Assembly (NCBI GenBank): GCA_012813795.1
Contig: GCA_012813795.1_4087.1
Source: a phage
Reading direction: 5' to 3' (one strand)
Length of the DNA: 64,000 bases
In this document: positions 2,924 to 22,592 of the stretch, piece after piece
Numbering within the stretch: position 1 is the first letter of the stretch
How the letters are laid out: each line of letters opens with the position of its first letter
Position numbers and translations under genes: made by a program
Notes under the pieces: generated by a model
The model's database searches: none
The model's input: only the letters and a program-made list of their open reading frames with translations
Told to the model about the DNA's origin: nothing

Positions 2924-2945
2924 TTACATTTCCTCGGACAAAAAA

Positions 2946-3083: not shown

Positions 3084-3085
3084 AA

Positions 3086-4542: not shown

Positions 4543-4963
4543 TATGTAATACCTTTAGGCATTGTAATGTTTCTGACATGATATTTGAATCGAACTCAAT
4601 ACTATCAAATTTGATAAATGTACTTTGTGTGAAGAAGGTAGATTCCACATCGGTTGAATAAAATGATTCATCAAAGAGATTAGTACTGAACATACCAGTT
4701 TTCTTTTTAAAGAACATCATAAATTTTGAATTATAACGAATGACGGCTTCATCTTTATTAATGATTATACGAGAAATCTGTGTTCTCGTTTGGGTGAGAA
4801 TATTGATTTGGAAAACATTTTTCTTAACTTCAACAATATCAACCATATAACCATCCCCACTATAAAAGTTACTTCTAACTTGGATTGGCTTTGATGTGAT
4901 ATTGATAATAGCGTCTTGAATAAAAAAGTTTACCGTATCAATGTTTCCTAAAATGTCTAACAT
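4499..4963 (-). CDS. FamA paralog (divergent)
   Basis: 154 aa; motif STFFTQSTFIKF. Confidence 0.55.
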   Translation of the reverse strand: MLDILGNIDTVNFFIQDAIINITSKPIQVRSNFYSGDGYMVDIVEVKKNVFQINILTQTRTQISRIIINKDEAVIRYNSKFMMFFKKKTGMFSTNLFDESFYSTDVESTFFTQSTFIKFDSIEFDSNIMSETLQCLKVLHNEFTNFIDSQNKIN

Positions 4964-5481
4964 AAATTCTCCTTAATAGCTGTCATATTTACGAGAAATT
5001 CTTCAAGTACTTCCTCTGTAATACGCTCTGTATACCAGAATATCACAATATCTTTTGAAAGACGAACATTCATAAAAATATCTACTAACTCTCTGTAGTA
5101 CTCTAGAGTTTCTAGATCTTTTAGAATTAATGAGTACTGAAACATAGATTCTTCAGTTAACTTAAATTCTGGATATAGTAATTCGTTAAATTCAATTGAT
5201 TCAATCTGTACTTTTATTTCTTTGAAGTTATTGGTTATACAACCTGAATAATTATTTCGGTACAACGCGGCATAATCCAGGAATTGTGCTTTGTGATTAA
5301 AATCAAGAACAGTTTCACCTTTATATGACAATCGGTGGAACGCCGAGAACCTTGTAATTTCCCACGGTTGCTTAATATCTAGTTCTGTAATATCAATTTG
5401 ATTGTGCATAAGATCTGTGAAAATCTCACCAATCTTTAATAGTAACTTAGTACGTACCAGTACTGTCATTGGATCAGTCAT
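4957..5481 (-). CDS. FamA paralog
   Basis: 174 aa; motif EESMFQYSLIL. Confidence 0.65.
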   Translation of the reverse strand: MTDPMTVLVRTKLLLKIGEIFTDLMHNQIDITELDIKQPWEITRFSAFHRLSYKGETVLDFNHKAQFLDYAALYRNNYSGCITNNFKEIKVQIESIEFNELLYPEFKLTEESMFQYSLILKDLETLEYYRELVDIFMNVRLSKDIVIFWYTERITEEVLEEFLVNMTAIKENLC

Positions 5482-5900
5482 TATACACCTTCATATTCAT
5501 CAAGAAAATCTTCGATAATCATTTCAGCTTCATCCATATGCATAGCATCAACTTCAACAATACGAACTTTAGATGTATCCCAAATCATATAACTAGGAAC
5601 ATTGTCCGGCTCGTATTCATTTTTGTACTGAACTGCATCGTAACCTTCAGTATCACAATACTCAATAAGTGATCGCCATTCGTCATCACTACCCAAATCC
5701 TCACACAGAAGCACGTTATCAACGTCAACTTCTAATACATGCAAGTACACTGTGTCAGCATCAACAACGTTCAGTGGGCTTCTCAGCTTGCGTAATGCAG
5801 CCTCAAGAGCACTATGCTTCCCTCCCATATGCAAACCACCATACGGAATGTAGAAGTTGTCAATTTTAACAGTACTTGCATGGTATAGAATCATCATCAA
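5481..5900 (-). CDS. hypothetical protein
   Basis: 139-aa minus ORF; no FamA motif. Confidence 0.6.
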   Translation of the reverse strand: MMMILYHASTVKIDNFYIPYGGLHMGGKHSALEAALRKLRSPLNVVDADTVYLHVLEVDVDNVLLCEDLGSDDEWRSLIEYCDTEGYDAVQYKNEYEPDNVPSYMIWDTSKVRIVEVDAMHMDEAEMIIEDFLDEYEGV

Positions 5901-6496
5901 TCCTCAGTGAGAATACAGTTCAGGTACGAACACAGTTCATCGTAAAAGAGTTTGTCCAGCACTGTAAGATAACAGATACCGTTCTCTTTCATTGCAGCCT
6001 GTATTTTATCATAACCATTCACTGTGTCAAGGATTTCTTGATAAGATAATGCATCATCGTTAACAGTACTGCTCTGGAATGCCATTTCTTCTATGTTATC
6101 GATGGGTTCCTCATCGGAATTTAAGAAGCCTCCATTTTGATATATAATGTAATCTTCATTCCATGATTTAGTGAAACGGAGCAGGATGGGTTCATTAGCG
6201 AACATTTCGATATCGCCACTTTCAATGTCGTATGAACAATATAGATTACAGTCTTCATCTATGAATTCTGCCATAAAGATTGCAGTTCGAGAACCATCAT
6301 ATACATAAACTCCAGTTTTGTTCATCTCAACATCAACTGCCATTCCATTTTTGAATTGCATTCGAATCGTGATTTTAAGACTTTGGAGTATGTTATTTTC
6401 TGTATCTTTAACACTATACAATCCACGATATCGTAACCACAAATCTTTGATAGTACTTAAAGAAATGATTAAGTCTTCATTGGGATCTTTTTTCAT
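5897..6496 (-). CDS. FamA paralog
   Basis: 199 aa; motif EEMAFQSSTVND. Confidence 0.65.
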   Translation of the reverse strand: MKKDPNEDLIISLSTIKDLWLRYRGLYSVKDTENNILQSLKITIRMQFKNGMAVDVEMNKTGVYVYDGSRTAIFMAEFIDEDCNLYCSYDIESGDIEMFANEPILLRFTKSWNEDYIIYQNGGFLNSDEEPIDNIEEMAFQSSTVNDDALSYQEILDTVNGYDKIQAAMKENGICYLTVLDKLFYDELCSYLNCILTED

Positions 6497-7098
6497 TCTG
6501 GAATTACCATGTCCGTAATTAATGTGGGCTGTTCAATACATTCAGGGTTAATAACAATGAACATTTTACGTAAACTTTTCACTTTGTACCAATCATTCAG
6601 TACTGAAACCATCAGCCACAATTCTTCTGGTGTAGTGGTAACTTCACCGAGTACACTCATTTGAAACAAAGCACCCTTGCAATCTTCAAGTGAAGTCAGT
6701 TTTGTTTTGTATCCTGATTCAACATCCATGAATGTTTTTGTCTTAGCATCGTATACGATGTACACACCCTTACCATCATCTAAAGTTAAAAATACCGGAG
6801 AGCCAGTGCTAAATTTACATTCATTAAACTCAGGAAACAGGTCATTAACTTCTTCATCTGGAACTTCTGTCAATTCCAGTGCTGAATAGTCAGTATAGAT
6901 ATTAGTAATCTCAATACTATATTTGTTGTACCAAGTCGCAAATGGTGTAGATTTACCTTTTTTGAATAATTTAAAATCACTTTTTGAACCGTACTTTTGG
7001 AATAGTTCTTTTTTAGCTTTAACTAAATCAGGGGCAATAGCTAATAAATCACGTAGTGCTTTTTCGTATTGTAAGTATTCTTTTCTGATATTACTCAT
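6493..7098 (-). CDS. FamA paralog
   Basis: 201 aa; motif KGALFQMSVLGE. Confidence 0.65.
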   Translation of the reverse strand: MSNIRKEYLQYEKALRDLLAIAPDLVKAKKELFQKYGSKSDFKLFKKGKSTPFATWYNKYSIEITNIYTDYSALELTEVPDEEVNDLFPEFNECKFSTGSPVFLTLDDGKGVYIVYDAKTKTFMDVESGYKTKLTSLEDCKGALFQMSVLGEVTTTPEELWLMVSVLNDWYKVKSLRKMFIVINPECIEQPTLITDMVIPE

Positions 7099-7630
7099 TG
7101 TAACCCTCTAAAAAATAATCTAATGTATCAAGTACATCACTATCAAAAAAGCAATTATTAACTACAACGATACCAGTATTATGTTCTAAATCATAACATT
7201 TATCCAGTACATTGATGCATTCATTGTACTCAATGATATCATGAAGAGTACTGTGCTGAAAGTGTTCTTCTTCAGTGTACTCGCAGTAATTAATATCAAC
7301 ACTGAACGATTGGTCGTTTCTTTTGCACGGATATAATTTAGTAGACTTTCGTCCAGACCATGTAATTGAATAACAACCAATCGAATTCTGTGGGATTTGT
7401 GTACCAGCATGAAGCATAATGTACAGAGCTTGCGAACTGTATGATTCAACGTACAAACGGTTCTTATCTGCATTCATAACACAACCATCAATTGACATGC
7501 TTAGTGAATGTGACATTCTACTGGCTTTCCTGATACCACGGCAGAAATTCACATAACGCTGGCGTAAGCTGTTAACTTTCTCAGGCCATAGCTCAAATTC
7601 TTTAGTATTTGATAATGTTGCAATGTGCAT
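7091..7630 (-). CDS. FamA paralog
   Basis: 179 aa; motif EEEHFQHSTLHD. Confidence 0.65.
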   Translation of the reverse strand: MHIATLSNTKEFELWPEKVNSLRQRYVNFCRGIRKASRMSHSLSMSIDGCVMNADKNRLYVESYSSQALYIMLHAGTQIPQNSIGCYSITWSGRKSTKLYPCKRNDQSFSVDINYCEYTEEEHFQHSTLHDIIEYNECINVLDKCYDLEHNTGIVVVNNCFFDSDVLDTLDYFLEGYNE

Positions 7631-7632
7631 TA

Positions 7633-8235
7633 TTATTCCTTAATAACTGGTATAGCAGACCAAATTCGTTTCATTAGTTCATCTTCTAATACCACATCAG
7701 TACTGATCTTTTTGTAGTTCATTGATAATAGAAAATTACATTTCAGTTCTGATTTTAATTTTTCATAAAGATCAATGTTCATATGCATTTCTTCATATGA
7801 AGGTAAAGAATGAATTAATGTATTTTGAAAATACCATTCTTCGCTGAAATCTTTCACTTCAACACTTTTGATATTCTTAAATGAATCCTTATCAAAATAA
7901 TATGAAACATCAGAACCATTATAATGTGAAAATGTTTTGAATAATTTTATTTCATTTGTACTACGAAGAATTCTTTCATAGGACAGAATTTTACTATCTT
8001 CTAATTCACCATGAAGTATCAGTGAAATATCAAAATCATTTGCAAGTCCAGCACCAAGGCGTTTGAATGCTAGTGTAATTCGTTGTTCACATGCCGAGAT
8101 TTCAATCCTGTAAAAATCAGTTGCATACGTTAACATAGAGTATGGGAGATGCAACTTTTCATTATTAGAAATACTTTTAGCTAACGTAATGACAGGGTTA
8201 AGCATTTTATTAAGAATAGGCATGTCAATGATCAT
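7633..8235 (-). CDS. FamA paralog
   Basis: 200 aa; motif EEWYFQNTLIHS. Confidence 0.65.
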   Translation of the reverse strand: MIIDMPILNKMLNPVITLAKSISNNEKLHLPYSMLTYATDFYRIEISACEQRITLAFKRLGAGLANDFDISLILHGELEDSKILSYERILRSTNEIKLFKTFSHYNGSDVSYYFDKDSFKNIKSVEVKDFSEEWYFQNTLIHSLPSYEEMHMNIDLYEKLKSELKCNFLLSMNYKKISTDVVLEDELMKRIWSAIPVIKE

Positions 8236-8236
8236 A

Positions 8237-8740
8237 TCATAATTCTCTTAGTTTTTTCAATACATAGTGTAGTACTTCATCTTCATTTGCATACGATGTG
8301 TACATGAGAAATTTGCAACAAGTACTGTTAAGATAGCACATGTAGGTGAACATTGCACTATAATTATTCACAGTACTGTTCTGAAATTCAACTTCATCAA
8401 TTTCACCCAATGATACAGGTCGCATGTTGCAATCTACACCATCAATTTTTACAACAGTAGTTCCTGGATGAAAGACTGCGGATTGTGAACCTATGGTGCT
8501 TGTATCGAAACTTGGTGCATCATAGATAGGACTATTGCTATCAAAGAGCATGAAAATGTCATGGTCTAAACCTCTTTTCTGCTCAAATACAACTCGGATC
8601 ATACCATCTTTTTGTATTTTAAGAATAATATCTGGAGCCAGTTCGAATCGACCATATTGTTCATTGATATATTTTTCTTCAAGAATTTTATGTAATTCCA
8701 CAAAGTCTTTAGTACTAAAGTGTTCCATCATATCCCTCAA
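8237..8740 (-). CDS. FamA paralog
   Basis: 167 aa; motif EVEFQNSTVNN. Confidence 0.65.
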   Translation of the reverse strand: MRDMMEHFSTKDFVELHKILEEKYINEQYGRFELAPDIILKIQKDGMIRVVFEQKRGLDHDIFMLFDSNSPIYDAPSFDTSTIGSQSAVFHPGTTVVKIDGVDCNMRPVSLGEIDEVEFQNSTVNNYSAMFTYMCYLNSTCCKFLMYTSYANEDEVLHYVLKKLREL

Positions 8741-9173
8741 CTAATTTTGTAATTTCTGCTCTTCGTACATCAATGTCATGAGCAAATGATATGGATGTGA
8801 AACCACGTTCTGCTGCAATGGCTCGCAACTGTAGGAGAAGTAATAACGGATATATCACTTCATCAGAATACAAAGTACTTAATTGAAATATGGTTGCTTC
8901 ATCAATCTCAGTACTTAAATCTATACTTTTAATATCAATGATTAACTGTGTATTGAAATACCATACATTGTCATTGACATAATCTATAGTAGTATTATCC
9001 ATTACACTATAATCAATGTATCTTTCATTTGACCATAATGTCATCATATCATCGCCGTCTGATGGATAGCTTACATCAAACCATGAACCTGATTTTCGAG
9101 CTTTACCATTATCCAGTTCATTGAGGCAGTACTGGATTAACTTTTTCAGTAATTCGTAATCGTCTTTATTCAT
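8715..9173 (-). CDS. FamA paralog
   Basis: 152 aa; motif EATIFQLSTLYS. Confidence 0.65.
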   Translation of the reverse strand: MNKDDYELLKKLIQYCLNELDNGKARKSGSWFDVSYPSDGDDMMTLWSNERYIDYSVMDNTTIDYVNDNVWYFNTQLIIDIKSIDLSTEIDEATIFQLSTLYSDEVIYPLLLLLQLRAIAAERGFTSISFAHDIDVRRAEITKLVEGYDGTL

Positions 9174-9651
9174 TGCATTTCCAGAATATAGGATGTTTGT
9201 TAAGTGTTTGAAATATCATATCAAATGTAAATTTGTAATAAGAATAAACACCGAAATTAATTGATATAGAATTTAAATTAGTTTCATGCACCATAGCACT
9301 ATGTATCAGTACTGCATTTCTATGAAACTCATTATCAAGGCTCACTTCAGCCATAAAATCATCTAAAGTTCTGTCGCCGTTCTTTTTCTCGTATATGATT
9401 TCACCACTGGGTTCAATGAATACTGAACTTTCCCTTGATAGGATCATGTTTCGTTTCACAATAACATTTTGAGATTCTTGACAGTTGAGTTCACAAAATG
9501 TCCATGAGCCACAGAACACAGATATAATGTCGTTGTTTTTCACGAAGTTAAAGGGAATGCCATCAATCATTATCTGTACTTCGTGCACAAATTTATGAGA
9601 ATACTTCTCAAGAATTTTACAAAATTTAATAACGTCTGCTGGATTTAACAT
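9166..9651 (-). CDS. FamA-like (divergent)
   Basis: 161 aa; degenerate motif DNEFHRNAVLIHS. Confidence 0.55.
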   Translation of the reverse strand: MLNPADVIKFCKILEKYSHKFVHEVQIMIDGIPFNFVKNNDIISVFCGSWTFCELNCQESQNVIVKRNMILSRESSVFIEPSGEIIYEKKNGDRTLDDFMAEVSLDNEFHRNAVLIHSAMVHETNLNSISINFGVYSYYKFTFDMIFQTLNKHPIFWKCNE

Positions 9652-10205
9652 TGGATTGCCTTAATATGTTCAATCATTGCCTTGGAGTTAGTACTCATGT
9701 ACTCAAATATATCATCATTCATGAGTTCTGTCAAGTTCAATTCAACCGTACATCCATCTGGTAAGTTCTTCTGACAGAACGGAGCCAGTACTGCACCGTA
9801 CAGTACATACGGATCATCAATAATTAAACTCTTCTGGAAGCAATCACAATCCATATCTTCTTCATTATCGAAGTAAGTACTGATATCTATTGCAGTACTA
9901 TCTTTACACATCAACTCTACATCACCTTTTTTAATTACTACACGCTTTGTCTTGGTATTGCGTAATCGGGTGTATTCTTTTATGTGTCGTTGTTGTGTAT
10001 TGATTTCAATGATATCTTTGTGGTTGTGCGTTATTGTGAAGTGCATATCATTATTCAAATCACCACTCAGAAAAAAATTAAGATCTCTTAGTACAGTGTG
10101 ATTGACTTTAATGTATTCACCTTCACGAATTAAACTCAGTGCAGCTACACAATCTTCAATGAACTTCTCAAGAAACTTTCCTCTACTGTAAAGACTATAT
10201 TTCAT
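9645..10205 (-). CDS. FamA-like (divergent)
   Basis: 186 aa; degenerate motif DDIFEYMSTNS. Confidence 0.55.
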   Translation of the reverse strand: MKYSLYSRGKFLEKFIEDCVAALSLIREGEYIKVNHTVLRDLNFFLSGDLNNDMHFTITHNHKDIIEINTQQRHIKEYTRLRNTKTKRVVIKKGDVELMCKDSTAIDISTYFDNEEDMDCDCFQKSLIIDDPYVLYGAVLAPFCQKNLPDGCTVELNLTELMNDDIFEYMSTNSKAMIEHIKAIQC

Positions 10206-10780
10206 GAGAACTCCCCAGTATTGTTGATAAGACTGTCCAGACCTTCATGAATTCTTTTAAATTCACTACGTTTAAAACGATGAACAATTTGTTGCAATGG
10301 ACAGTATTTGTCTTTCTTATCCAGTTCATGATTGACGATTGTACTGAAAAGTAATAAATCCAATTCGTTAGTACTGTACATAGTACTTAACTGGAATAGT
10401 TCTTCTTCTATAGTACTACTGTTAAGATTAATCTTTGGAATTTTTTTACCTGAAATAACAATCCCTGCAAATTCACTTGTCCCTGGAACTTCAGCATTTC
10501 CTCCAATAATATAATCGTAGTTAATGTACCCATCGTTATTGGTTAAATCTTCTTTATTGTACTTAATTATCAGAAAGACACGTAGATCATTCATCGAAAC
10601 TACTGCATGATCATACATACCTTCCTGGTCTTTAGTAATCGCCAAACGCATATATGGGAGATTAAATGTCTTTCTTGTTTTACATAAATCACTATTAAGA
10701 ATAGCATTCACTTTCAAAACCATCTTAGTGTAATATTGATACTCTTCGGACATGTAATTATAAAGATTTGAGAAATGCAT
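10202..10780 (-). CDS. FamA paralog
   Basis: 192 aa; motif EEELFQLSTMYS. Confidence 0.65.
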   Translation of the reverse strand: MHFSNLYNYMSEEYQYYTKMVLKVNAILNSDLCKTRKTFNLPYMRLAITKDQEGMYDHAVVSMNDLRVFLIIKYNKEDLTNNDGYINYDYIIGGNAEVPGTSEFAGIVISGKKIPKINLNSSTIEEELFQLSTMYSTNELDLLLFSTIVNHELDKKDKYCPLQQIVHRFKRSEFKRIHEGLDSLINNTGEFS

Positions 10781-11330
10781 TTAATTCCTCCAGTAATTCT
10801 TCTTGTGTTTCAGTACTTTCATTGTATAAATTATTGAAAGCGGAACACTCCCCACTACCAAGTTGCATTGATAGTTGATATACAAAATCAGCTTTAGCTA
10901 TCATATCATAACCTGGGAGCAACGACAACTGGAAAAGATATGCTTCTCGCTCTTCTGGATTTTGTAGCTCAGGTGCAATATGAAGATATTCTTCATCATC
11001 ATAATAATCATCGTACAAATTTCTGACGATTAATTCGTTAGTTTCTTTGAGTTTATTCACAGTAAGACTACAATCAGAAACTGAACCCAGAAATTTACTC
11101 TCTCTGCCTGATGCCACATAAGAAGCATCAACTGACCATATATTTTTGGTTTTATGTTGAATGCAGTGTTGTATTTGGATATTAGCATAACGATACAAAG
11201 TACTGCAATCAAAAACTAATCGGTACATTGGATTGTTGAAGTAATGAAAAATATTCTCAGTTCTTTTTTGTTCATCTAACTTATGAGTAAGTTCTTCTAG
11301 TACTTTAAAAATATCAATTAGTGTTTTCAT
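10758..11330 (-). CDS. FamA paralog
   Basis: 190 aa; motif EAYLFQLSLLPG. Confidence 0.65.
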   Translation of the reverse strand: MKTLIDIFKVLEELTHKLDEQKRTENIFHYFNNPMYRLVFDCSTLYRYANIQIQHCIQHKTKNIWSVDASYVASGRESKFLGSVSDCSLTVNKLKETNELIVRNLYDDYYDDEEYLHIAPELQNPEEREAYLFQLSLLPGYDMIAKADFVYQLSMQLGSGECSAFNNLYNESTETQEELLEELNAFLKSL

Positions 11331-11868
11331 GTTCTTTTCTCGTTTGTGCGTAGTTTTTCAAGTCCTTGAGTAATACTACTAATTGATCATCAGTGAGTAA
11401 TGATGCTGTTGCACTATATGACATATAATAATTATTGAGATTGAAATCAAATTTATAGTTACGTGCTAAAGCTTCAATCGTAAGTGCATCAGTGATTAAT
11501 TTATCGTGAGTTACAGAACTCTGGAAATTTTGTTCTTCTAAATTCTCAGTACTGAACAACGCAATAGGATCATATGATGGTTCTTTGTAATCAACTGCCT
11601 CTTTCATTCGAGGATTACGTGAAATAAAAGCCCAAGTACTGTCATATGAAAAATCAACAACACAGTCTTCCTCATCACCTTCATGTGGATAAATGCACAG
11701 AAAAGTTTTATTTTCTTCTGTGAACATCTGCTGCGTTGCAATACCCTCTCCTGTGTATTCAATTTCATAATCGAAACCGATTCTTAATTTACGTCCCTGT
11801 GAATTACACGTTTCAAGAAGTTTTCCCAGTTCGTTGTAAATTTGTAAGATTAATAGGTAATTGTTCAT
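11314..11868 (-). CDS. FamA paralog
   Basis: Track ORF 11314..11925 trimmed to internal ATG at 11868 (MNNYLLIL...), preceded by GAGGA SD; the discarded N-terminus translates the terminator hairpin; motif EEQNFQSSVTHD. Confidence 0.6.
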   Translation of the reverse strand: MNNYLLILQIYNELGKLLETCNSQGRKLRIGFDYEIEYTGEGIATQQMFTEENKTFLCIYPHEGDEEDCVVDFSYDSTWAFISRNPRMKEAVDYKEPSYDPIALFSTENLEEQNFQSSVTHDKLITDALTIEALARNYKFDFNLNNYYMSYSATASLLTDDQLVVLLKDLKNYAQTRKEHENTN

Positions 11869-11904
11869 ATGATATCCTCGGTTAAATAATATTAAAATAA
11901 TAGC

Positions 11905-11934
11905 AAAGAAAAAAGCCAGAGTCAATACCCTGGC
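11905..11934 (-). terminator. rho-independent terminator of the chemoreceptor cassette
   Basis: GCCAGAG..CCCTGGC hairpin followed on the minus strand by UUUUUUCUUU, directly after the stop of 11942..13354. Confidence 0.6.
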
Positions 11935-11941
11935 TTTAAAA

Positions 11942-13354
11942 TTATTTCACGTTAAAAATCGAAGTGGCTTTTTGTAAAGCATGTACTTCAGACTGTTGAT
12001 TGTCTACCATCATCATTGTGTCCTTTACATGCTCCGCATTTTGCTGTACTGAACGGTCCATCATATTAACACTCTCAGTAACCTGAAGGATTGCAATACT
12101 TTGTTGTTCAGCCATTATAGCTAAATCATCAATGAACTGCAAGAGTGAATCAACATTTTTTACAATAGAATCAATATCACTTGCAGTTTCGTTGATTTGT
12201 TCTATTACTTGGTTGTTGTTTTTTACGGAGTTATCAACGATTTCTTTAATTTCTTTACTACATGCATCACATTTCATTGCTAAGTTACGAACTTCCTGTG
12301 CAACAACAGAGAATCCACGTCCATGTTCACCCGCTTTAGCAGCTTCAATACTGGCATTTAAAGAAAGAATATTAGTCTGGAAAGCAATAGTTTCTATATT
12401 TTTGAGTATAGCAACTATAGCATTAGAATCTTCTTTAATTCTATCCATCTGCTCTTTGCAATTATTGATACTTTCAATTGCATTAGTACTGGATTCTTTT
12501 GTAGTTTTAACCATACTTTTTGCAGTATTGGAGTTATCAGATGTATTTGCAGATGTAGCACTTAATTCTTCCATAGCAGCAGCGATTTGAGTAAGTGCCT
12601 GTCCTTGTGTTTCAGTTCTGAAAGCTAAATCATTACTTTTACTTTCGAGATGATAGGAGTTGCTTTTCATTGACTGAACTGTAATTTGTACTTGTTCAAT
12701 TGCCTCACGCATAGCTGATATTGTTTTACTAAAAGTCTGTGCAAATTCGGAGTTGAAATGATTATTTTGTATTTCTAAAGTAATATTGCCGTCTTCAGAA
12801 TTCACTGATCTTGCAATTCGTTGAATTTCATCTGCTTCATTTGCATCTTTCTCCATAATGTACGCAACGTACATCAGAACTATTGCCTGAACTACTACAT
12901 ATATTGCGTGCTCTATAATGTGCCATAACGAAATATGGTGAAAAGAAAACACAAATAATATTGGAATTCCAGCACCCTGTAACAATCCAAATAATAAATG
13001 ATGTATAGCAATCAGTACTGAACCTGCTAATACACAACGCCAGTCACGCCATACAATCAATAAACTTAAAAAGATAAAAACTGTAAAGTGCCATTCCACC
13101 ATCCCTACACCAAGATGTATTAGTAACGCACTCCAGCACATCACATTTATACTTAACAACGTTCGAGTGAATGCATTACTTTCAACAAATAGTAAAGGAG
13201 TTAGCATTACTAATAATAAAACTGCACCGATTAGTGCAATAATAAAACTACCATGAACAACACCGGAAACTAAAGTAGCAGCAAATAAAGCCCCTATACA
13301 ACATAGTACTAAATTATCGGCTTTTTTGCGTATATTTTCTAAATTACTTTTCAA
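11942..13354 (-). CDS. methyl-accepting chemotaxis protein (MCP)-like polytopic membrane protein
   Basis: 470 aa; N-terminal half has several hydrophobic helices; C-terminal half carries the MCP signalling-domain signature [37 protein letters not shown] (canonical chemoreceptor hairpin-tip motif); no periplasmic sensor or HAMP domain evident. Confidence 0.8.
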
Positions 13355-13899
13355 CGTACTTCTCCATAATTTAAATTATCATCAATGTATTTTTTTAATA
13401 ACAAATGTATTTTCTCTAGTTCCTCTTGGCTTTTGGTAAGTAACTTGTCCATAATTGTAATTTCATAATGATCTTCTAATAACCTAAGTAATTTATAACC
13501 CATTTCTAGCTTATTATAAGTTAATTGATCATATGACATAGCAGCCATGAACATTTGTTCTTTGAAAGTGTTTGAATCAATTTTAGCTACAGCTAACTTC
13601 TCGTCATCTTCATAAGAATGTTTTACCAGTATCTTAGTGTAGCGTGATACATTATATAGACGAATTTCACTATCTCCGCGTAGAATTTCCATCTTGTATT
13701 CTTGTCTACGTTGTGTTGCATTAATGATCTTTACGACATAACCTAAACCACTAATGAACAATGTAATATTAGAATATACTGATGGAGATTCTTTTGGGTT
13801 GATATTTAATTCACCTAACTCAAAATTAACAGTATTATTATCAGGACTGTTTTTAAAAATATAAATCATGCATTCAATAATATTTACAATGCTATCCAT
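13351..13899 (-). CDS. hypothetical protein, first gene of the MCP cassette
   Basis: 182-aa minus ORF overlapping the MCP-like gene by 4 nt (coupled); own promoter upstream. Confidence 0.6.
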
Positions 13900-13930
13900 A
13901 AAATACGCTCTCTTTTAAATAGGTTACAAT

Positions 13931-13959
13931 ATTCTAACATTCTACATTACTAATGTCAA
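13931..13959 (-). promoter_or_regulatory. sigma70-like promoter of the MCP cassette
   Basis: Minus strand reads TTGACA-N17-TAGAAT. Confidence 0.55.
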
Positions 13960-13970
13960 CCTATAAACGA

Positions 13971-13994
13971 AAAAAGACCCATCAGGGTCTTTTA
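13971..13994. terminator. bidirectional rho-independent terminator
   Basis: GACCC-atca-GGGTC hairpin flanked by A5 and T4; contains the stop codon of 13982..14533. Confidence 0.55.
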
Positions 13995-14533
13995 AATGCT
14001 CGTAAGTCTCTCAGAATGTTTGGTAGAGTGCCTTGTTCCATTACGGAATTCAGTACATTAAGATCCATTGTAAGATAGAAACCATCAGGGATGTAATCAC
14101 GAACTAACTTATCCAACTCAATGATATCCATTGTTAACTGATCATATAGAGTACTGTACTGGAAAAGCACCCCATCGTCAACATTTAAATCTATTAAGTT
14201 ATCACCGTGATTGCATTGGCAAAAGTTATTAGCAAGATTTTTATGTTTAATGCTGCTTATGTACACATATGGATAACGTGTGAGTACACGATTCTGTGCC
14301 TCCGAGCATCCATCTTGTATTTCTTCTTCTGATAACTCAGGGTGCAAAAGAAACAATGAACTATCACTAATGTACAAAGTACCGATGCAACCGATTTTAT
14401 TATTACTGTGTCGAATATAACATGAACCAAGATTTGATATAGGTTTTATATCTTGTAGTACAATAGGAAAAAAGTTAATAATAACTTTAGATAGATCTTT
14501 TAGTACTGGGTTTATTGTTAATGGTAGACTCAT
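13982..14533 (-). CDS. FamA paralog
   Basis: 183 aa; motif DGVLFQYSTLYD. Confidence 0.65.
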   Translation of the reverse strand: MSLPLTINPVLKDLSKVIINFFPIVLQDIKPISNLGSCYIRHSNNKIGCIGTLYISDSSLFLLHPELSEEEIQDGCSEAQNRVLTRYPYVYISSIKHKNLANNFCQCNHGDNLIDLNVDDGVLFQYSTLYDQLTMDIIELDKLVRDYIPDGFYLTMDLNVLNSVMEQGTLPNILRDLRAFKRP

Positions 14534-15162
14534 TTCATTATCCTTGAACCGCCTATATAGGTATCGTTAAAATAATTATCATTTTCAAACGCCATGTTAT
14601 TCAAATCAGCAAGGTCATCGAAGTAACCGCCTTCAATACATATTTCTTTGAATACATCACTGTACTTGAATAAATTTACTAAACTAAAGGTAATGTCTGC
14701 TCTTTGAACTTTAGTACCTTTAAGGTGCTCATGTAGATATGGGAAAACAATAGTATATAATAAATCATTCGGTTCATATAATAAACTATATTGAAAGAAT
14801 GATTCTTCTGAATAATCCATATCATTGAGGTTCAATCTAAGTACCTCATTACGATCCAGTACTAATGTTTTATCTGACAAATCGAAGTTCAAGCAGTGCG
14901 TATAAAATGGTCCTAAGTTCCCAACTCTATTTTTATCTGAACCACTAGGACTGAAATCAAGCCATACTTCATTCAACTCACTATCATCTGATTCTATGTA
15001 CTCAAGAACATTGTTATGAAAACGCATGTCATAACATTCAAGGAACTTATCATCCTTCAGACGTGGTAATATGTCCGTTAATGCTCGTGCATACGCAATG
15101 CAGTGCTTATACTCTAGGCGATGAAACACGTACTTTGAAATTGGTTTTCTTTTTGAACTCAT
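14530..15162 (-). CDS. FamA paralog
   Basis: 210 aa; motif EESFFQYSLLYE. Confidence 0.65.
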   Translation of the reverse strand: MSSKRKPISKYVFHRLEYKHCIAYARALTDILPRLKDDKFLECYDMRFHNNVLEYIESDDSELNEVWLDFSPSGSDKNRVGNLGPFYTHCLNFDLSDKTLVLDRNEVLRLNLNDMDYSEESFFQYSLLYEPNDLLYTIVFPYLHEHLKGTKVQRADITFSLVNLFKYSDVFKEICIEGGYFDDLADLNNMAFENDNYFNDTYIGGSRIMK

Positions 15163-15166
15163 TCAA

Positions 15167-15781
15167 TTAATCCCCAATTGAACATATGTTTTCTTCAGTA
15201 ATACTTTTTAATTTAAGTAATAACCCATCCCAGTCCTGTTCTTTGAATATTTCAGGTTCTAATTTGATATACTTTGTCAATGGTAATTTAGGGGATAGAT
15301 TTTTACAAAATTTAATAGCATCAATAACACAGGCGTTGTGAATTAATGAGTACTGAAACAATGTTTCGTCGAGTACATCATCATCTGGAATATCCAGAAA
15401 TTCAGGTTCATGTGTTGTGACATAGTAATCTTCTTCTTCATCCATATCAATGTAGACTTTATTAAGATAATTAAGTCCAGATGAACTAATAAAAATACCA
15501 TCGCTTCTTGAGATACAAATATAAGAACTGGGCATATATATATCTAAATCTCTTGCACTGTTGTGGTCGGTCAATTCTGTTCTTACGCAGATGATAGCTT
15601 TACAATTTTCATCCATTAAATCAAACCATTTGTCACCACGGTCAAATTTGTATGTAGAATTTTGTTCAGTACTGGTATGAAATGAAATAACACGATTTGT
15701 TAGACGCCATGCAAATTCATGAATACGAATTAGTTCTAAACTTATCTGACTAATTTTATCTATTGTTTCGTTTGTCAGCAT
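15167..15781 (-). CDS. FamA paralog
   Basis: 204 aa; motif DETLFQYSLIHN. Confidence 0.65.
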   Translation of the reverse strand: MLTNETIDKISQISLELIRIHEFAWRLTNRVISFHTSTEQNSTYKFDRGDKWFDLMDENCKAIICVRTELTDHNSARDLDIYMPSSYICISRSDGIFISSSGLNYLNKVYIDMDEEEDYYVTTHEPEFLDIPDDDVLDETLFQYSLIHNACVIDAIKFCKNLSPKLPLTKYIKLEPEIFKEQDWDGLLLKLKSITEENICSIGD

Positions 15782-16262
15782 TTTTTAAAATCCTTACCTG
15801 TTTAATAAAGTGCTTCATTGAAGCAAATTCAAAACTAATTCTCTGAAACTCACTATATTTTTTAAAGTACGATAGAATAAACATAGCTTTAAGTTCAGAG
15901 TCATTGTAAATTAATGAATTTTGGAAATAATTTTCATCCGTTAAATCAGTAATGTACGGAAGTATATGATTAATAAATTGTGCTTTTCCTCTTTGGTGTG
16001 AAATATATTTTATATCAGAACCATCTGAACGAAATAGAATATAGTCTGTTTTACCTTTCTCAAACATAGAATGAGCCAGACGATCTTCAGCTTTAGTATG
16101 AAAATATATACAATGAGCACCATGACGTATATTAAAAGACGATTCAGTACTGTGATGGATAGCGAAATATCTATGCAAATTAACTTCATTAACGTACAAA
16201 TAAGTTATTGTATCAAGACAATCCTTTGCGAACTTTATTAGTTCTGATAGTTTCCTCGACAT
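15756..16262 (-). CDS. FamA paralog
   Basis: 168 aa; motif DENYFQNSLIYN. Confidence 0.65.
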   Translation of the reverse strand: MSRKLSELIKFAKDCLDTITYLYVNEVNLHRYFAIHHSTESSFNIRHGAHCIYFHTKAEDRLAHSMFEKGKTDYILFRSDGSDIKYISHQRGKAQFINHILPYITDLTDENYFQNSLIYNDSELKAMFILSYFKKYSEFQRISFEFASMKHFIKQVRILKNADKRNNR

Positions 16263-16271
16263 ATAGCACCT

Positions 16272-16742
16272 TTATAAATGTTCCAAAAAAGTATTAAAGA
16301 AATCCAAATCAATATAAAAGGAATTAAGTCCCTCGCTTCTTAAGTATGTCACAATCACAGATAGTAAAAGTATATTACTTGTATATAATAATGAGTTTTG
16401 AAAGTACATCTCTTCATTACATATTTCAATATGTGAAGGTAATACTTTAAAATCACTGTCATGAACACAAATTTTATCAAGGTATGAATGGTACTGAATA
16501 TAATGGTAATCAAAGCTCATGAATGATTCATCATCACACACTGATTCCCCTATGTTTAAAACTTCAGTACCAGCGTAATACCATGCATTATGAGTATTTG
16601 ATTTTTCAAACACTTTGTCAAATTTACCATTATTACCAGCATGATAAATCTTCATCAAAATCTTTGCAAAATCAATACACGCCGCATATGAATCGTATCG
16701 GATGACATGACCATCCAGTACTAACTCGTCGGATTCTATCAT
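16272..16742 (-). CDS. FamA paralog
   Basis: 156 aa; motif EEMYFQNSLLYT. Confidence 0.65.
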   Translation of the reverse strand: MIESDELVLDGHVIRYDSYAACIDFAKILMKIYHAGNNGKFDKVFEKSNTHNAWYYAGTEVLNIGESVCDDESFMSFDYHYIQYHSYLDKICVHDSDFKVLPSHIEICNEEMYFQNSLLYTSNILLLSVIVTYLRSEGLNSFYIDLDFFNTFLEHL

Positions 16743-17221
16743 AGAGAAAGTTCCTCTGCAAGTAATTCCTCAATAAGTTCAAGATGTACTAAATCCAGAT
16801 AGAAAGCACTGGCATTTACACTATTGAGATATGAATACAACATTATAGCACGAACTGTTTCTTCTGTATAGATCAAAGATAACTGAAAGTGCGTCTCTTC
16901 AGTAGGCTTATAAGAACCTATATTATCAAGTACAATTGTCTCTTCCTCCCATTGGAAGTAACATACAAGTGTATTCCCTGGGGTAAAGGTCATGTACAAA
17001 TCCATTAGATTGTATTCTGAATCATCATAAATCGTAGCGTAGATGGCCTCTCTTTTGGATTTGAATGTAGGTAGTTTTATGACAAATGAACTTTTATCAC
17101 AGCTTTTAATCTTATCGACATATGAACGCTTTTGGAACTCAGTACTTTCCATTATAAGATGAATTTTGTAAATCTTTTTTGCAAAATCAATATCTTCCTG
17201 GAATGTCATTAATCTCTCCAT
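16739..17221 (-). CDS. FamA paralog
   Basis: 160 aa; motif EETHFQLSLIYT. Confidence 0.65.
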   Translation of the reverse strand: MERLMTFQEDIDFAKKIYKIHLIMESTEFQKRSYVDKIKSCDKSSFVIKLPTFKSKREAIYATIYDDSEYNLMDLYMTFTPGNTLVCYFQWEEETIVLDNIGSYKPTEETHFQLSLIYTEETVRAIMLYSYLNSVNASAFYLDLVHLELIEELLAEELSL

Positions 17222-17640
17222 TTTTTTCCTGGGAAATGCTTATCGTAGAACTCATCATCACTAAGCATATAATCAGGAATTTCTCTTTCGATCTTTAAAA
17301 ACTCTACATTAGTTGAAAAATATTCAGGGTTAGACTTAGGCACAAAGTCCATTAAACCCTCCTGAATCTTCTTGAGAAGGTCAATATCACCACGGTAAGG
17401 ACATACTAAGCTGTACTGAAATAGCTCGTCAGGTAGCATTACAGCGAGATTCTCAATGTCATATTGTGAGTTATCTTTGTGAGAATAGATATAGAATTTA
17501 TTCTCCGGTACTGGTTGTGTTACTTTAGAATAATACAATTCGTTATTATCATCCAGCATTACACTATGAGTGCAACCATACGTTTGAAATCTTGTATTAA
17601 GTAAAGCCTTTGATTTAACTTTTATAATTTCAAAATACAT
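17209..17640 (-). CDS. FamA paralog
   Basis: 143 aa; motif DELFQYSLVCP. Confidence 0.65.
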   Translation of the reverse strand: MYFEIIKVKSKALLNTRFQTYGCTHSVMLDDNNELYYSKVTQPVPENKFYIYSHKDNSQYDIENLAVMLPDELFQYSLVCPYRGDIDLLKKIQEGLMDFVPKSNPEYFSTNVEFLKIEREIPDYMLSDDEFYDKHFPGKKWRD

Positions 17641-17978
17641 TAATCCACCTCAAGTGTATATTTGTGCATCATAAATGATTTAACCAGAAATAAATCTTTG
17701 TGTTTTAGTTTCTGAAGAGACTCCAACAAAATATTCTGTACATCTAATAATTCGTATACATCATATTCAAATGCAGTGCTCATTTGAAATAGTTCTTCTT
17801 CACTTAAATTGTAAAGAAGTTCCAAATTCGTATCTTTGTGTTTAGTAGAAATAAAAGATACAATGGATTCATCCTCTTCTACAGAGAAGATAACCCAATG
17901 TCCAGCCTTGCATTCTTTTTGGACAATGAAAATTTCATCACCATCGTGCATGTACTCAATATCAACTACTTTTCCCAT
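17640..17978 (-). CDS. FamA paralog (short)
   Basis: 112 aa; motif EEELFQMSTAFE. Confidence 0.65.
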   Translation of the reverse strand: MGKVVDIEYMHDGDEIFIVQKECKAGHWVIFSVEEDESIVSFISTKHKDTNLELLYNLSEEELFQMSTAFEYDVYELLDVQNILLESLQKLKHKDLFLVKSFMMHKYTLEVD

Positions 17979-18465
17979 TTAGATATCCCTTGCATACTTC
18001 AAAATCATTCAAATCAAAATAGAAGTCAGTTTCAATTTCATGCTTATATCGGAGAAAACTGTAGAGTGTTATGACATTCAATACCAACATATTCATAGTA
18101 GTACTTAACTGAAAGTAATCTTCTTCAGAAATTAGTTTTACATCTTCTTCATTGATACTACTCTTTTTATTACGACCCTTTTCATCACGTAAATCTACTA
18201 CAACTTCACCTTCTTTTGAGTAAGATAGGTAATTCATGCCTACACTATATTCACTATCATCAAATGATTCACAGAAGATTTCCATCATTTCGCCTGATTT
18301 CTGTGTATATGTTAAACAACTTTTCCTATCCCTGTTAAGACTCTTTTTTCGAGAATACATTGAACCAAATGCTGTAGTATTGTTCTTGAATTCATCATAG
18401 ATTTCGTAGATATCTTTTGCGTACTGTTCAATCTCATCGTAATTAAGCTTACTAATATCAGGCAT
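17962..18465 (-). CDS. FamA paralog
   Basis: 167 aa; motif EEDYFQLSTTMN. Confidence 0.65.
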   Translation of the reverse strand: MPDISKLNYDEIEQYAKDIYEIYDEFKNNTTAFGSMYSRKKSLNRDRKSCLTYTQKSGEMMEIFCESFDDSEYSVGMNYLSYSKEGEVVVDLRDEKGRNKKSSINEEDVKLISEEDYFQLSTTMNMLVLNVITLYSFLRYKHEIETDFYFDLNDFEVCKGYLNGKSS

Positions 18466-18962
18466 TACAATTCTCCTACACGATTAATATGATCCAACAT
18501 GATATCATAATCACAAAGGTCAAAGTAAAATTGGGCATCAGGTGGTAATTTTTTATGCAATTCAGATATTGCAGTTAATGCAAAAACCACATCTTCTGAA
18601 TAGATTGTGCAGTACTGAAAGTATTCACACTCATCATTGATATCAATGAGATCTATATCTTCGTACTCCAAAAATTCTTTATAAAAACGAAGTGTACCTT
18701 TCGCTTTCGCATTGAATCCAAAGAATGACGAACCAAGAATTCTTACATTATTATATGCTTCAACTTTGCTGTATAACATATGCATACGAAATGACAGGAC
18801 ACTGGATACCTGTACTGTATCGGTAAACATTTCACCACTTTTGGGGTACACATATGTAACGTCAAAATTAGTTTCAACATCTCTTAAAAAGTTATGAATG
18901 CGAATTAAATTGTCTGCAAAAGTTATAGCATTACTGTATGAGAGTTCAGGATTGAATTGCAT
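18465..18962 (-). CDS. FamA paralog
   Basis: 165 aa; motif ECEYFQYCTIYS. Confidence 0.65.
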   Translation of the reverse strand: MQFNPELSYSNAITFADNLIRIHNFLRDVETNFDVTYVYPKSGEMFTDTVQVSSVLSFRMHMLYSKVEAYNNVRILGSSFFGFNAKAKGTLRFYKEFLEYEDIDLIDINDECEYFQYCTIYSEDVVFALTAISELHKKLPPDAQFYFDLCDYDIMLDHINRVGEL

Positions 18963-19018
18963 GATATGATCCTTTTCGTATTAGATGAAAAAGATTATAT
19001 CATGCACAGAAGGAGGTG

Positions 19019-19555
19019 TCAAGAGGGATTACGAACAAAATTCCAAATTAGATCGTAAAAAGTAAGGTCAACATAAAAAGGAGGGAAGTTATTCTGTTTA
19101 AGCCAAGAGAACATGAATTGTACACCAACTATGTACGGGTCGTCAACAGTACTCATCTGAAAGAACAGTTCTTCGGTAAGTTCTTCTTCGATAAATGGAA
19201 GAACAATGTCAGTATCTACGTAAAAGAACTTTATTCTGTCATAGTAAGGTGAATAACTTAAAAAGCCACCGCTGTATTTTGGATCATATTCAGGGTCATT
19301 AAATTTGTTGATATTGAACATATCAACACTGTACCCGTCATCATCCAGACCTCTTGAACGAATACTGAAGTAATCATAACTTGAATCAATAAATCTGTCA
19401 GATTTTACCCAAATAGAAGTCTCTCTGTTATTACAAATGAACTCATGGATTTGCATAAGATCTTGAGCAGTACTGCGAGCGTGTTCAAAAGTGTCAACCT
19501 TTAAATGGTGAGTACCGTCCCAATCATCTTTCTCTATTCTGTCATAATCTAACAT
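19019..19555 (-). CDS. FamA paralog
   Basis: 178 aa; motif EELFFQMSTVDD. Confidence 0.65.
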   Translation of the reverse strand: MLDYDRIEKDDWDGTHHLKVDTFEHARSTAQDLMQIHEFICNNRETSIWVKSDRFIDSSYDYFSIRSRGLDDDGYSVDMFNINKFNDPEYDPKYSGGFLSYSPYYDRIKFFYVDTDIVLPFIEEELTEELFFQMSTVDDPYIVGVQFMFSWLKQNNFPPFYVDLTFYDLIWNFVRNPS

Positions 19556-19557
19556 AA

Positions 19558-19896
19558 TTAAACCTCTTTGTATTGGACAATAAATTCCAGTTTTCTTTGT
19601 AGTTCACATGGATAGTTATTCATTATATCTTTCATTAGTTGCTGATACTTAATTAACTTTTCAATATCTACAATTCTATTGTACTCCCATACTAATGATT
19701 CCTGAAATAACTCTTCTTCACTATAATCACTGTAATCAAAAATATGAAATACATCTCGTGCTAAATTATTAGTGATTATCTTGAACATATTCTTTTCATA
19801 TGTAAGATAATAAAAATGTTCTTTCTTGTGGTTATAACCTAACTCAATCATTACATAGTACTGATGTTTGGCTATAGTAACTTTTACTAAATCCAT
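19558..19896 (-). CDS. FamA paralog (short)
   Basis: 112 aa; motif EEELFQESLVWE. Confidence 0.65.
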   Translation of the reverse strand: MDLVKVTIAKHQYYVMIELGYNHKKEHFYYLTYEKNMFKIITNNLARDVFHIFDYSDYSEEELFQESLVWEYNRIVDIEKLIKYQQLMKDIMNNYPCELQRKLEFIVQYKEV

Positions 19897-20309
19897 CAGT
19901 ACTCAACCTCTACATGGATAGATTCAGGAAACTTAGTCATATGATCTTCTGGATAGTTCTGCATTGCTTTGATCATTTCTGCCTGTGTAGCACGGACGTA
20001 TTCAATTGGTGCTCCTGGTAAATCCCAGACTGTACTTTCCTGAAAGAATTCCTCTTCTAACAGTACTGTAAGATTTACAAAATCATTACGATAATTTTTT
20101 GAATCATCATATGTGAAGATTTTAAAAGACCCATTTTCATATAGTACAAGAACAAAATGGGAGAATTTTTGTAATGCACCACCCATTTCCACGACCGCAT
20201 GATTCAGTGTACAAATGACCTCTTTTTTCCTCATACCGAATTGGATTCTAATTTCTTTTTTCATAAAATCTCCTTCAGATGAGTACAAAATTTGTACAGT
20301 ATATTGCAA
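19896..20309 (-). CDS. FamA paralog
   Basis: 137 aa; motif EEEFFQESTVWD. Confidence 0.65.
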   Translation of the reverse strand: MQYTVQILYSSEGDFMKKEIRIQFGMRKKEVICTLNHAVVEMGGALQKFSHFVLVLYENGSFKIFTYDDSKNYRNDFVNLTVLLEEEFFQESTVWDLPGAPIEYVRATQAEMIKAMQNYPEDHMTKFPESIHVEVEY

Positions 20310-20911
20310 TCCGCAATGTACAATAACTCAAGAATTTTGGAATTCTGAAATTCCTTGCACAGAACATTAGAACTGTATGTAGCTGCTGAATCCACATCCA
20401 TAATCAAATCCTGTTGGAATGCAACATCAGTACTTGGATTGAGATCCACATCTTGTACTGCACCTTTATTATAAAATGAAGTACCTGTGCCTAAATTCTT
20501 ACCCAATCCAATAATGAAAGAAGTACTGGAATTTAATGTAAGTTGATACAGATTGCTTCTTACATCGTAGAAGAAACGATTTAAATCACGATCAATCTTG
20601 AAATCATCATTGCATTTAATCAAATCACGCTTTGACATATATGGTTTAATATACATAAAGTTCACACCATTATATGAAAGCTCAAAGTCTTTTTGTGTTT
20701 TATTAAATGATTTAACTAAATCACGAAATGTAGAAGGTGATTGACTCAGTACTGTATCGTAATAATATTCAGCAGTACTGATAAGTAGCTTAGCTTTCTC
20801 GTGAATATCAAATGTGGAAGTTTTGTTTAAATTGATCAATTCTTCTCTCCATTTCATCAATACAAGTATCAATGTCTTCATAATTTGCATATACAAATAC
20901 AGGAGCATCAT
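20261..20911 (-). CDS. FamA-like (divergent)
   Basis: 216 aa; motif DVAFQQDLIMD; overlaps upstream gene by ~100 nt, so true start is probably an internal Met (e.g. MKWREEL, ~20857). Confidence 0.5.
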   Translation of the reverse strand: MMLLYLYMQIMKTLILVLMKWREELINLNKTSTFDIHEKAKLLISTAEYYYDTVLSQSPSTFRDLVKSFNKTQKDFELSYNGVNFMYIKPYMSKRDLIKCNDDFKIDRDLNRFFYDVRSNLYQLTLNSSTSFIIGLGKNLGTGTSFYNKGAVQDVDLNPSTDVAFQQDLIMDVDSAATYSSNVLCKEFQNSKILELLYIADCNILYKFCTHLKEIL

Positions 20912-21356
20912 CCCTTAAACGAAGGATATTCCACAAAGAAATACCAAACACTTCAATATCATTGTACACTGTACTTAACTGAAAAACACTTTCTTCATTA
21001 ATTTCAAGGTGTGGTAAATCTATGTGTTTGTCAACATCGCTTAATGATGTAACATCAACTGCACTCGCACCTGCATTAAAAGTATTCAGTACTGTCGAAT
21101 CTTTTCTGTACACTAATCCATACAATTCCCCATTGTTATGGGTGCACATAGATAATTTTCCATTTGTTTCAGGAACAGAACCGAACTTAATAATTGTTCG
21201 GCCTGACGATCTGAAAGACATATACGTTATGGAATCGTTTTGTGAAACAATTAGCTCACTCCTAGAAAGTATACGCTCATCTTGCAGTACTACTTCCGTC
21301 AATTTGGTTAGTGTACTTAACTTATTTGCAAAAGAAATTATCTCATCATAGGTCAT
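20808..21356 (-). CDS. FamA paralog
   Basis: 182 aa; motif EESVFQLSTVYN. Confidence 0.65.
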   Translation of the reverse strand: MTYDEIISFANKLSTLTKLTEVVLQDERILSRSELIVSQNDSITYMSFRSSGRTIIKFGSVPETNGKLSMCTHNNGELYGLVYRKDSTVLNTFNAGASAVDVTSLSDVDKHIDLPHLEINEESVFQLSTVYNDIEVFGISLWNILRLRDDAPVFVYANYEDIDTCIDEMERRIDQFKQNFHI

Positions 21357-21582
21357 AGTGTTCGCTCATTTCATTCATATATTCATAGCACGATAGGTAT
21401 ATAATTTTTTTAATCATAAAAGACATATCAGATTTGTCACTGTCCTCTGCAATACGAAAAATATAACGCATATTAGCAAAGATATAAAGAGGTATATCCG
21501 ATTCTTCAGTACCAGAAAATATATCTATAATAAACCCATAACTAAAATCCGATGCTGGTGCTTGTTCAAAAGTATTGTCCAT
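21346..21582 (-). CDS. hypothetical protein
   Basis: 78-aa minus ORF. Confidence 0.5.
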   Translation of the reverse strand: MDNTFEQAPASDFSYGFIIDIFSGTEESDIPLYIFANMRYIFRIAEDSDKSDMSFMIKKIIYLSCYEYMNEMSEHYDL

Positions 21583-22556: not shown

Positions 22557-22592
22557 TGTAACACAGTACAGGCTCTTGTCAATAGCATGAAC

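Follow-up and report, generated by a model that had tools for sequence, protein, structure and literature searches.

A chemoreceptor gene with a six-helix membrane sensor in a PBECO4-like jumbo phage of Escherichia coli

All five chemoreceptors (methyl-accepting chemotaxis proteins, MCPs) of E. coli belong to the 36-heptad class. What one added receptor can do is illustrated by McpC, an accessory MCP of Salmonella that, once part of the receptor array, makes cells swim smoothly without a ligand (PMC7806825). Among phages, MCP, CheR, and CheY are listed as morons of Nitrosospira phages in a 2026 preprint. Our literature search returned no functional study of a phage-encoded chemoreceptor, no characterized MCP of the Enterobacterales with six transmembrane helices (6TM), and nothing specific on a 6TM class of MCPs. 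Here we describe an MCP gene in a stretch of phage DNA of 64,000 nucleotides (contig GCA_012813795.1_4087.1 of assembly GCA_012813795.1; the whole stretch is hereafter called the window). The source genome is an Asteriusvirus, that is, a PBECO4-like jumbo myovirus. Over bases 11900-14000, which contain the gene, identity to Escherichia phage A4 (ON286972), a phage of E. coli LF82 with a genome of 355,528 bp, is 98.4%, and no phage record other than A4 matches these bases at this level. The GenBank record of A4 already names the product as a methyl-accepting chemotaxis protein (A4_379); the paper on A4 makes no mention of the gene (PMC9355613). What is new is that a virulent coliphage combines a host-compatible signaling module with a sensor not found in E. 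coli, and that this sensor belongs to a very large family for which there is no Pfam model.

Architecture of the encoded receptor

The open reading frame (ORF) encodes a genuine full-length MCP, composed of a 6TM sensor, a HAMP-like linker, and a 36-heptad signaling hairpin (Table 1). The Pfam profile MCPsignal (PF00015) matches residues 281-434 with 122.9 bits against a gathering threshold of 34.6 (E = 1.6e-35), and phmmer against the PDB retrieves structures of Tsr (E = 1e-35) and Aer (E = 1e-24). NCBIfam MCP models match at E-values down to 3e-48, all of them far under their curated cut-offs of at least 900 bits. An AlphaFold2 model of the full-length protein, built on 28 homologues, has a mean predicted local distance difference test score (pLDDT) of 86.5; it places six helices in the first ~168 residues, continues the sixth transmembrane helix (TM6) to residue 184, and then passes through a short strand (190-193) into a hairpin with arms 203-340 and 342-464. 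The original prediction, made from the letters of the DNA alone, had proposed an MCP-like signaling protein with a multi-helix hydrophobic N-terminus and a chemoreceptor tip peptide. The profile search bears out the first of these, topology prediction gives six transmembrane helices for the second, and the tip peptide is found at residues 323-359. Lack of a significant match to the signaling domain, or disruption of the ORF in other isolates, would have spoken against the prediction; the match is strong, and the ORF is undisrupted in A4 and in a third assembly.

The signaling hairpin runs in register with E. coli receptors along its whole length. Residues 246 and 469 of the phage protein align with Tsr 294 and Tsr 517, respectively, an offset of +48 on both arms of the hairpin, and the tip residue E343 corresponds to Tsr E391. 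A MAFFT alignment with E. coli Tar and Tap contains zero gaps from the second HAMP helix (AS2) to the C-terminus. Because the offset is the same on both arms and the alignment with Tar and Tap is gapless, we assign the phage MCP to the 36-heptad (36H) class by its sequence; a heptad-class check had been suggested along with the original prediction, and the register is that of Tsr, Tar, and Tap. Against Tar, 83 of the 254 hairpin residues are identical (33%) at a fixed offset of +45 without gaps, and in the tip core identity rises to 28 of 35 residues (80%). Seven trimer-contact positions of Tsr (F373, I377, L380, N381, E385, E391, and V398) are identical in the phage protein (F325, I329, L332, N333, E337, E343, and V350, respectively), and two further positions are altered (Tsr V384 to I and R388 to K). 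The C-terminus (...SIFNVK) falls at the position of Tar 515 or Tsr 518, so that the NWETF pentapeptide and its flexible linker are absent. Between membrane and hairpin, the modeled TM6 helix (to residue 184) is followed by a connector (185-202), which holds the strand, and by a second helix from residue 203; this region aligns to the HAMP domains of Tar, Tap, and Tsr with one small indel.

The N-terminal 168 residues form the sensor. Its transmembrane helices span residues 4-33, 37-56, 61-81, 86-102, 105-127, and 143 onward (domain model: pLDDT 90, predicted template-modeling score 0.84), and the charge distribution, as judged from the sequence and the transmembrane prediction, follows the positive-inside rule for a topology with the N-terminus inside, six transmembrane helices, and the C-terminus inside. 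H89, H119, and H149 are present in all of the 28 full-length homologues aligned, and E87 and H118 in 90% or more of them. Among 49 diverse members, the invariant set comprises G84, E87, H89, F90, F93, H119, H149, and V153, with H118, Q126, and a YRDW cytoplasmic turn being nearly invariant. The phage copy retains every invariant and near-invariant residue of the sensor at only ~38% identity to its nearest relatives. H89 stands at the start of TM4, H118 and H119 two-thirds up TM5, and H149 early in TM6; with this topology, E87, H89, H118-H119, Q126, and H149 are predicted to lie in that half of the bundle which faces the periplasm, and the His/Glu cluster is a putative binding site for a metal or a small ligand.

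The sensor is very widespread. Searched exhaustively with a profile of the sensor, 1.84 billion cluster representatives yielded 5,800 proteins at E ≤ 1e-3 and, at the stricter threshold of E ≤ 1e-10, 3,226; most are MCPs of about 500 aa, longer members add HAMP, HAMP_2, or PAS, and one subfamily joins the sensor to a histidine-kinase domain (HisKA), with genes that lie in a hybrid-kinase context. Because the same domain is fused to HisKA as well as to MCP outputs, it is a modular membrane sensor and not merely an anchor. Pfam has no model that matches the 6TM region, whether of the phage protein (E ≤ 0.1) or of six relatives (E ≤ 1), and no NCBIfam family covers the N-terminal 170 residues. 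A Foldseek search of the sensor domain against the PDB gave nothing significant, and that of the full-length model against BFVD was uninformative. The six-helix His/Glu domain may deserve description as a sensor-domain family of its own, and the phage copy, being array-compatible with E. coli, offers a convenient handle on what this large family detects.

Proposed role in the infected cell

The phage MCP is an orphan, without Che partners of phage origin: tblastn with E. coli CheA, CheW, CheY, CheZ, CheR, and CheB returned no match in the window, and a search of all phage records with CheW returned no Asteriusvirus match, A4 included. On balance, and with modest confidence, we favor reading the protein as a functional, phage-maintained chemoreceptor that enters the CheA/CheW arrays of the host. 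Host RNA polymerase would transcribe the gene early, from a promoter of the sigma-70 type, and the host Sec/YidC machinery would insert the product into the inner membrane such that the N- and C-termini both face the cytoplasm. The receptor would dimerize, join mixed trimers-of-dimers in the polar receptor arrays of the host, and control host CheA through CheW, and with it the flagellar rotation bias of the infected cell. Its input would be whatever the E87/H89/H118-H119/H149 cluster binds, for which a metal ion, or a cue linked to redox state or pH, is our best guess. Because the NWETF tail is missing and only one methylation pair is canonical, we would expect it to adapt poorly, in the manner of low-abundance receptors such as Aer and Trg, and to rely on host Tsr and Tar for adaptation. 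As a net effect, infected E. coli would gain a sensory input foreign to the species, and the place or manner of its swimming would be biased. Phage A4 is reported to leave its host unlysed in broth, and the authors of that study suspect that its strategy of infection is atypical (PMC9355613); non-lysis would give time for a behavioral effect. A further step, that the phage steers the infected cell toward sites favoring its spread or persistence by way of a cue that E. coli otherwise cannot sense (perhaps metal, redox, or pH), is a tentative suggestion, which we hold possible and short of probable.

Several points weigh against a working receptor in host arrays. Only one of the five equivalents of the Tsr methylation sites is a canonical EE pair (262-263), the others being E-T, T-Q, K-D, and Q-Q, and the Pfam HAMP profile (PF00672) gives no match to the linker at E ≤ 0.1. 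The clustering of the histidines is predicted from topology and early expression from the type of promoter, and the link of the protein to CheA, CheW, or motility is likewise a proposal. Existing arrays need time to take up new receptors, and motility may be lost on infection. Moreover, other Asteriusviruses do well without an MCP, so that any benefit would be lineage-specific or conditional.

If the receptor works as proposed, it would be a case of a virus manipulating host behavior, beyond metabolism, through a sensory receptor. It would act in the best-understood signaling system, in which Förster resonance energy transfer, tethered cells, and cryo-electron tomography with existing strains make the steps measurable, and it would help explain how some jumbo phages persist without visible lysis.

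We regard it as rather unlikely that the protein instead sets the bias of the array, or jams it, independently of any ligand, entering or titrating CheA/CheW and fixing the cell in a smooth-swimming, tumbling, or non-chemotactic state with the six helices serving as an anchor. The consensus-like promoter, which suggests high expression, would suit such a protein, and so would methylation sites that are largely non-canonical and the lack of an NWETF tail; Salmonella McpC suppresses tumbling ligand-free once it is in the array (PMC7806825). An anchor-only role, however, leaves unexplained why E87, H89, H119, H149, H118, and Q126 have been retained at ~38% identity.

Less probable again is a role outside chemotaxis, be it polar targeting, sensing for phage decisions, superinfection exclusion, or interference with host defense. 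The orphan state of the MCP, its place in an array of small early-type genes without assigned function, and the atypical infection phenotype of A4 all lend this some credit, but the parts that contact CheA/CheW and form the trimer are the best conserved of the cytoplasmic domain, and no conserved partner gene adjoins the MCP. As a candidate component of a defense system the protein was rejected, since PADLOC yields only weak coiled-coil matches to JetC, LmuB, and DruC.

Origin, rarity, and genomic setting of the gene

Chromosomes of Enterobacter, Pseudocitrobacter, Pantoea, and Siccibacter encode MCPs that are related to the phage protein over its full length (37-39% identity at 99% coverage), and more distant relatives (about 31% identity) occur in Burkholderiales. 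In a neighbor-joining tree, the phage MCP sits on a long branch; the sampled Enterobacterales clade is its sister (95/100) and excludes it (100/100). Its GC content (34.1%) and GC content at third codon positions (GC3, 24.0%) are those of its flanks, the corresponding values of the Enterobacter soli homologue being 57% and 67%; relative synonymous codon usage (RSCU) of the MCP correlates with that of phage ORFs (0.88) and not with that of the E. soli gene (-0.30). GC3 and RSCU thereby rule out a recent transfer from a high-GC enterobacterium. Because its composition is indistinguishable from that of the phage, we conclude that the MCP is an old, ameliorated acquisition; it is under purifying selection, and is neither contamination nor in decay. 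A selectively neutral passenger heading for loss is very unlikely: the gene is indeed confined to one sub-lineage of the genus and lies in a hypervariable region, but three intact copies exist, the third being a variant from an independent Logan assembly with the same gene order, the copies in the window and in A4 differ by 20 synonymous and only 7 nonsynonymous codons, and a fully ameliorated MCP still keeps all invariants of its family. Contamination with host DNA or an assembly chimera is effectively refuted already, for although many MCP and CheW matches in phage collections are short, host-like records, the order of genes is equal in the window, A4, and the independent Logan assembly, codon usage is phage-like, the gene is translationally coupled to a phage gene, and the 6TM-domain DNA of the E. 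soli homologue has zero matches in 5,426 complete E. coli genomes (blastn, 'distant' mode).

In E. soli (GCA_031460405.1; 6592-9452 of the stretch examined), exbB and exbD, which encode the TonB energizing complex used in iron uptake, immediately precede the gene of the closest bacterial homologue, and the neighborhood could hint at a metal-related cue. A conserved bacterial neighborhood was rejected as a clue to the ligand, the contexts differing among Enterobacter, Cupriavidus, and metagenomic contigs.

That chemoreceptors are atypical phage cargo, as the original prediction remarked, agrees with our surveys. By tblastn, this MCP gene is present only in A4 among 50,697 phage records, and other Asteriusvirus records have no MCP anywhere in the genome. 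Neither a single-protein scan nor a profile scan of IMG/VR found a contig with the 6TM sensor; the profile scan did return 75 MCP loci that match by the signaling domain only, on contigs that are all shorter than 90 kb, and often at contig ends. Phage-borne MCPs are thus rare but not unique. Of the MCP and CheW matches in the phage collection, many come from whole bacterial contigs or from short fragments without annotation and look like host DNA, among them OR85xxxx and OR84xxxx records (Salmonella phage S.Kent 1-2-1, Escherichia phage ECO95 1-6-1, and Listeria phage LM 4-14-1) and AFYI01/AGRM01. One CheW fragment is 94% identical to the E. coli protein, and such records inflate counts of chemotaxis genes in phages.

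The original prediction had described the locus as a moron-like cassette, a two-gene unit with a promoter and a terminator of its own. A gene-by-gene BLASTP comparison with PBECO4 supports this picture only in part. Gene order is conserved at only 25-35% identity, and the MCP, which has no PBECO4 homologue, stands between genes that are neighbors in relatives: in PBECO4, gp169 and gp168 meet in an ATGA overlap without an equivalent of the terminator, and their fEgEco12 homologues likewise abut. The MCP does have its own terminator, a hairpin at 11937-11912, first placed at 11905-11934. The 182-aa gene upstream of the MCP was not imported with it; it is the syntenic homologue of gp169 (BLASTP, 29% identity, E = 5e-9), and also matches fEgEco12 g139 (E = 3e-8) and phrog_36809 (E = 1.2e-9). 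Upstream of gp169, PBECO4 has a terminator, AAAGACCCTTATGGGTCTTTTT, and then a promoter, TTTACA-N17-TATAAT, in the same position. Because PBECO4 has both the gp169 homologue and the terminator-promoter pair in place, the 182-aa gene, its promoter, and the preceding terminator are ancestral, and the lineage-specific insertion consists of the MCP, its terminator, and the 184-aa ORF that follows. The MCP is not a classical moron: it has neither a promoter of its own nor a foreign composition.

The predicted promoter itself was found exactly where it had been placed, at 13959-13931 on the minus strand. It is the top-scoring site between 9 and 17 kb, in a region where promoter-like sites are overall not enriched (50 found vs. 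45.5 expected). It drives the 182-aa gene and presumably also the MCP. The TTG start codon of the MCP and the TGA stop codon of the 182-aa ORF overlap as TTGA; the same TTG is used by the annotators of A4, and bacterial homologues align from residue ~8 on. To judge from these signals in the sequence, the MCP is translationally coupled to the resident gene, and with this coupled start and a sole upstream promoter that is ancestral and common to PBECO4, we rejected an MCP with its own promoter. Downstream, the promoter-like site at 11897-11925 would restart transcription for the 184-aa ORF. Its -35 hexamer, TTGACT, sits in the hairpin of the MCP terminator, so that signals for termination and re-initiation overlap within about 40 bp.

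Table 1 Features of the MCP locus in the window and PBECO4 counterparts of the neighboring ORFs (positions are those of the window; ORFs with a single number are named by their first position)
Feature	Position	Strand	Basis or remark
MCP gene, 470 aa	11942..13354, including stop codon	-	ORF call, Pfam, AlphaFold2 model; no PBECO4 homologue (BLASTP synteny)
Ribosome-binding site GGAG, 7 nt 5' of the MCP TTG, inside the upstream gene	13362..13365	-	Sequence read directly
6TM sensor, aa 1-168, conserved G84, E87, H89, H118, H119, Q126, H149	12851..13354	-	Domain model and alignments
HAMP-like linker, aa 169-216, helix-connector-helix	12707..12850	-	Model and alignment to HAMP of Tar, Tap, Tsr
Signaling hairpin, aa 217-470, 36-heptad class	11945..12706	-	Gapless register with Tsr, Tar, Tap
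Intrinsic terminator directly 3' of the MCP stop	11912..11937	-	11-bp stem and T-run; -15.5 kcal/mol, z = -4.6
Promoter-like site TTGACT-N17-TATTAT, TG extended	11897..11925	-	10/12 positions; followed by GAGGA and ATG at 11868
184-aa ORF, A4 lineage only	11314..11868	-	No match at the PBECO4 locus (BLASTP synteny); tblastn only A4; annotated from ATG in A4; present in third isolate
Resident array gene, 182 aa, outside the insertion	13351..13899	-	Homologue of PBECO4 gp169 (BLASTP synteny) and fEgEco12 g139
Sigma-70-type promoter TTGACA-N17-TAGAAT, TG extension	13931..13959	-	11/12 positions; upstream of the 182-aa gene
Intrinsic terminator of the upstream gene 13982-14533, ancestral	13972..13993	-	9-bp stem and T-run; -12.5 kcal/mol, z = -3.9; near-identical PBECO4 hairpin
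ORF, counterpart of PBECO4 gp167	10202		BLASTP synteny
ORF, counterpart of PBECO4 gp168	10758		BLASTP synteny
ORF, counterpart of PBECO4 gp170	13982		BLASTP synteny
ORF, counterpart of PBECO4 gp171	14530		BLASTP synteny
ORF, counterpart of PBECO4 gp172	15167		BLASTP synteny
ORF, counterpart of PBECO4 gp173	15756		BLASTP synteny

The locus lies beyond a sharp boundary of divergence from PBECO4. ORFs at 4957-5900 are 76-93% identical to gp159/gp160, and the syntenic genes at 5897-15781 are 24-36% identical; from 5897 on, nearly nothing aligns to PBECO4 as DNA, so that a hypervariable block is embedded in a conserved gene order. Large arrays of small genes that are paralogues also occur in the window, exclusively on its minus strand (15756-34304, 34937-37849, and 8715-23039), and BLASTP clustering of the small minus-strand genes yields families of 17, 6, and 5 members and several pairs. 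The genes flanking the MCP have in common a weak F-Q-x-S motif only and fall under BLASTP detection of one another; the 182-aa gene has no BLASTP paralogue in the window at E < 1e-3. ARAGORN found zero tRNA genes in the window, and 6 are reported for the whole genome of A4 (PMC9355613).

Comparison with known receptors and sensors

Two other large phage genomes carry full-length MCPs, both annotated as hypothetical proteins. That of Vibrio phage vB_VmeM-Yong XC31 (290 kb; 1187-3019 of the stretch examined) has the architecture dCache_1-HAMP-MCPsignal, and that of the record named 'Microcystis phage MaAM05' (~280 kb; 1796-3322 of the stretch examined) is a Protoglobin-MCPsignal protein. They have the signaling domain alone in common with the MCP of the A4 lineage; the sensors differ. 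The MaAM05 gene adjoins thiL and ispD and the sample is hospital wastewater, so that this record may not be reliable phage sequence.

Six-helix membrane domains also anchor class III adenylyl cyclases (AC9, 6r3q; AC5, 8sl3) and the diguanylate cyclase ImcA of Pseudomonas aeruginosa (8wcn). These proteins have other output domains and are 10-12% identical to the phage sensor; we take the likeness as resemblance in fold only and claim no homology. The same architecture and the same invariant residues are found in the 6TM-MCPs of Enterobacterales (E. soli, E. wuhouensis, Pseudocitrobacter, Pantoea, and Siccibacter; ~483 aa), which are chromosomal, are annotated only as MCPs, and have an N-terminal extension of ~13 residues that the phage MCP lacks.

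Salmonella McpC resembles the phage MCP in being an accessory receptor, and serves as a model of how one added receptor alters behavior. It differs in being a host gene under the control of HilD and H-NS and in having another sensor, and we claim no homology beyond the signaling domain.

With the 36H receptors of E. coli and Salmonella (Tsr, Tar, Tap, Trg, and Aer), the phage MCP has the length and register of the hairpin in common, and a HAMP-like helix-connector-helix is modeled between its membrane part and the hairpin; Aer, Trg, and Tap, like the phage protein, are without the NWETF tether. Unlike the E. coli receptors, the phage MCP has only one canonical methylation pair and comes from a virulent phage, with 34% GC, and in place of a periplasmic four-helix bundle or a PAS-FAD domain it carries a six-helix sensor embedded in the membrane.

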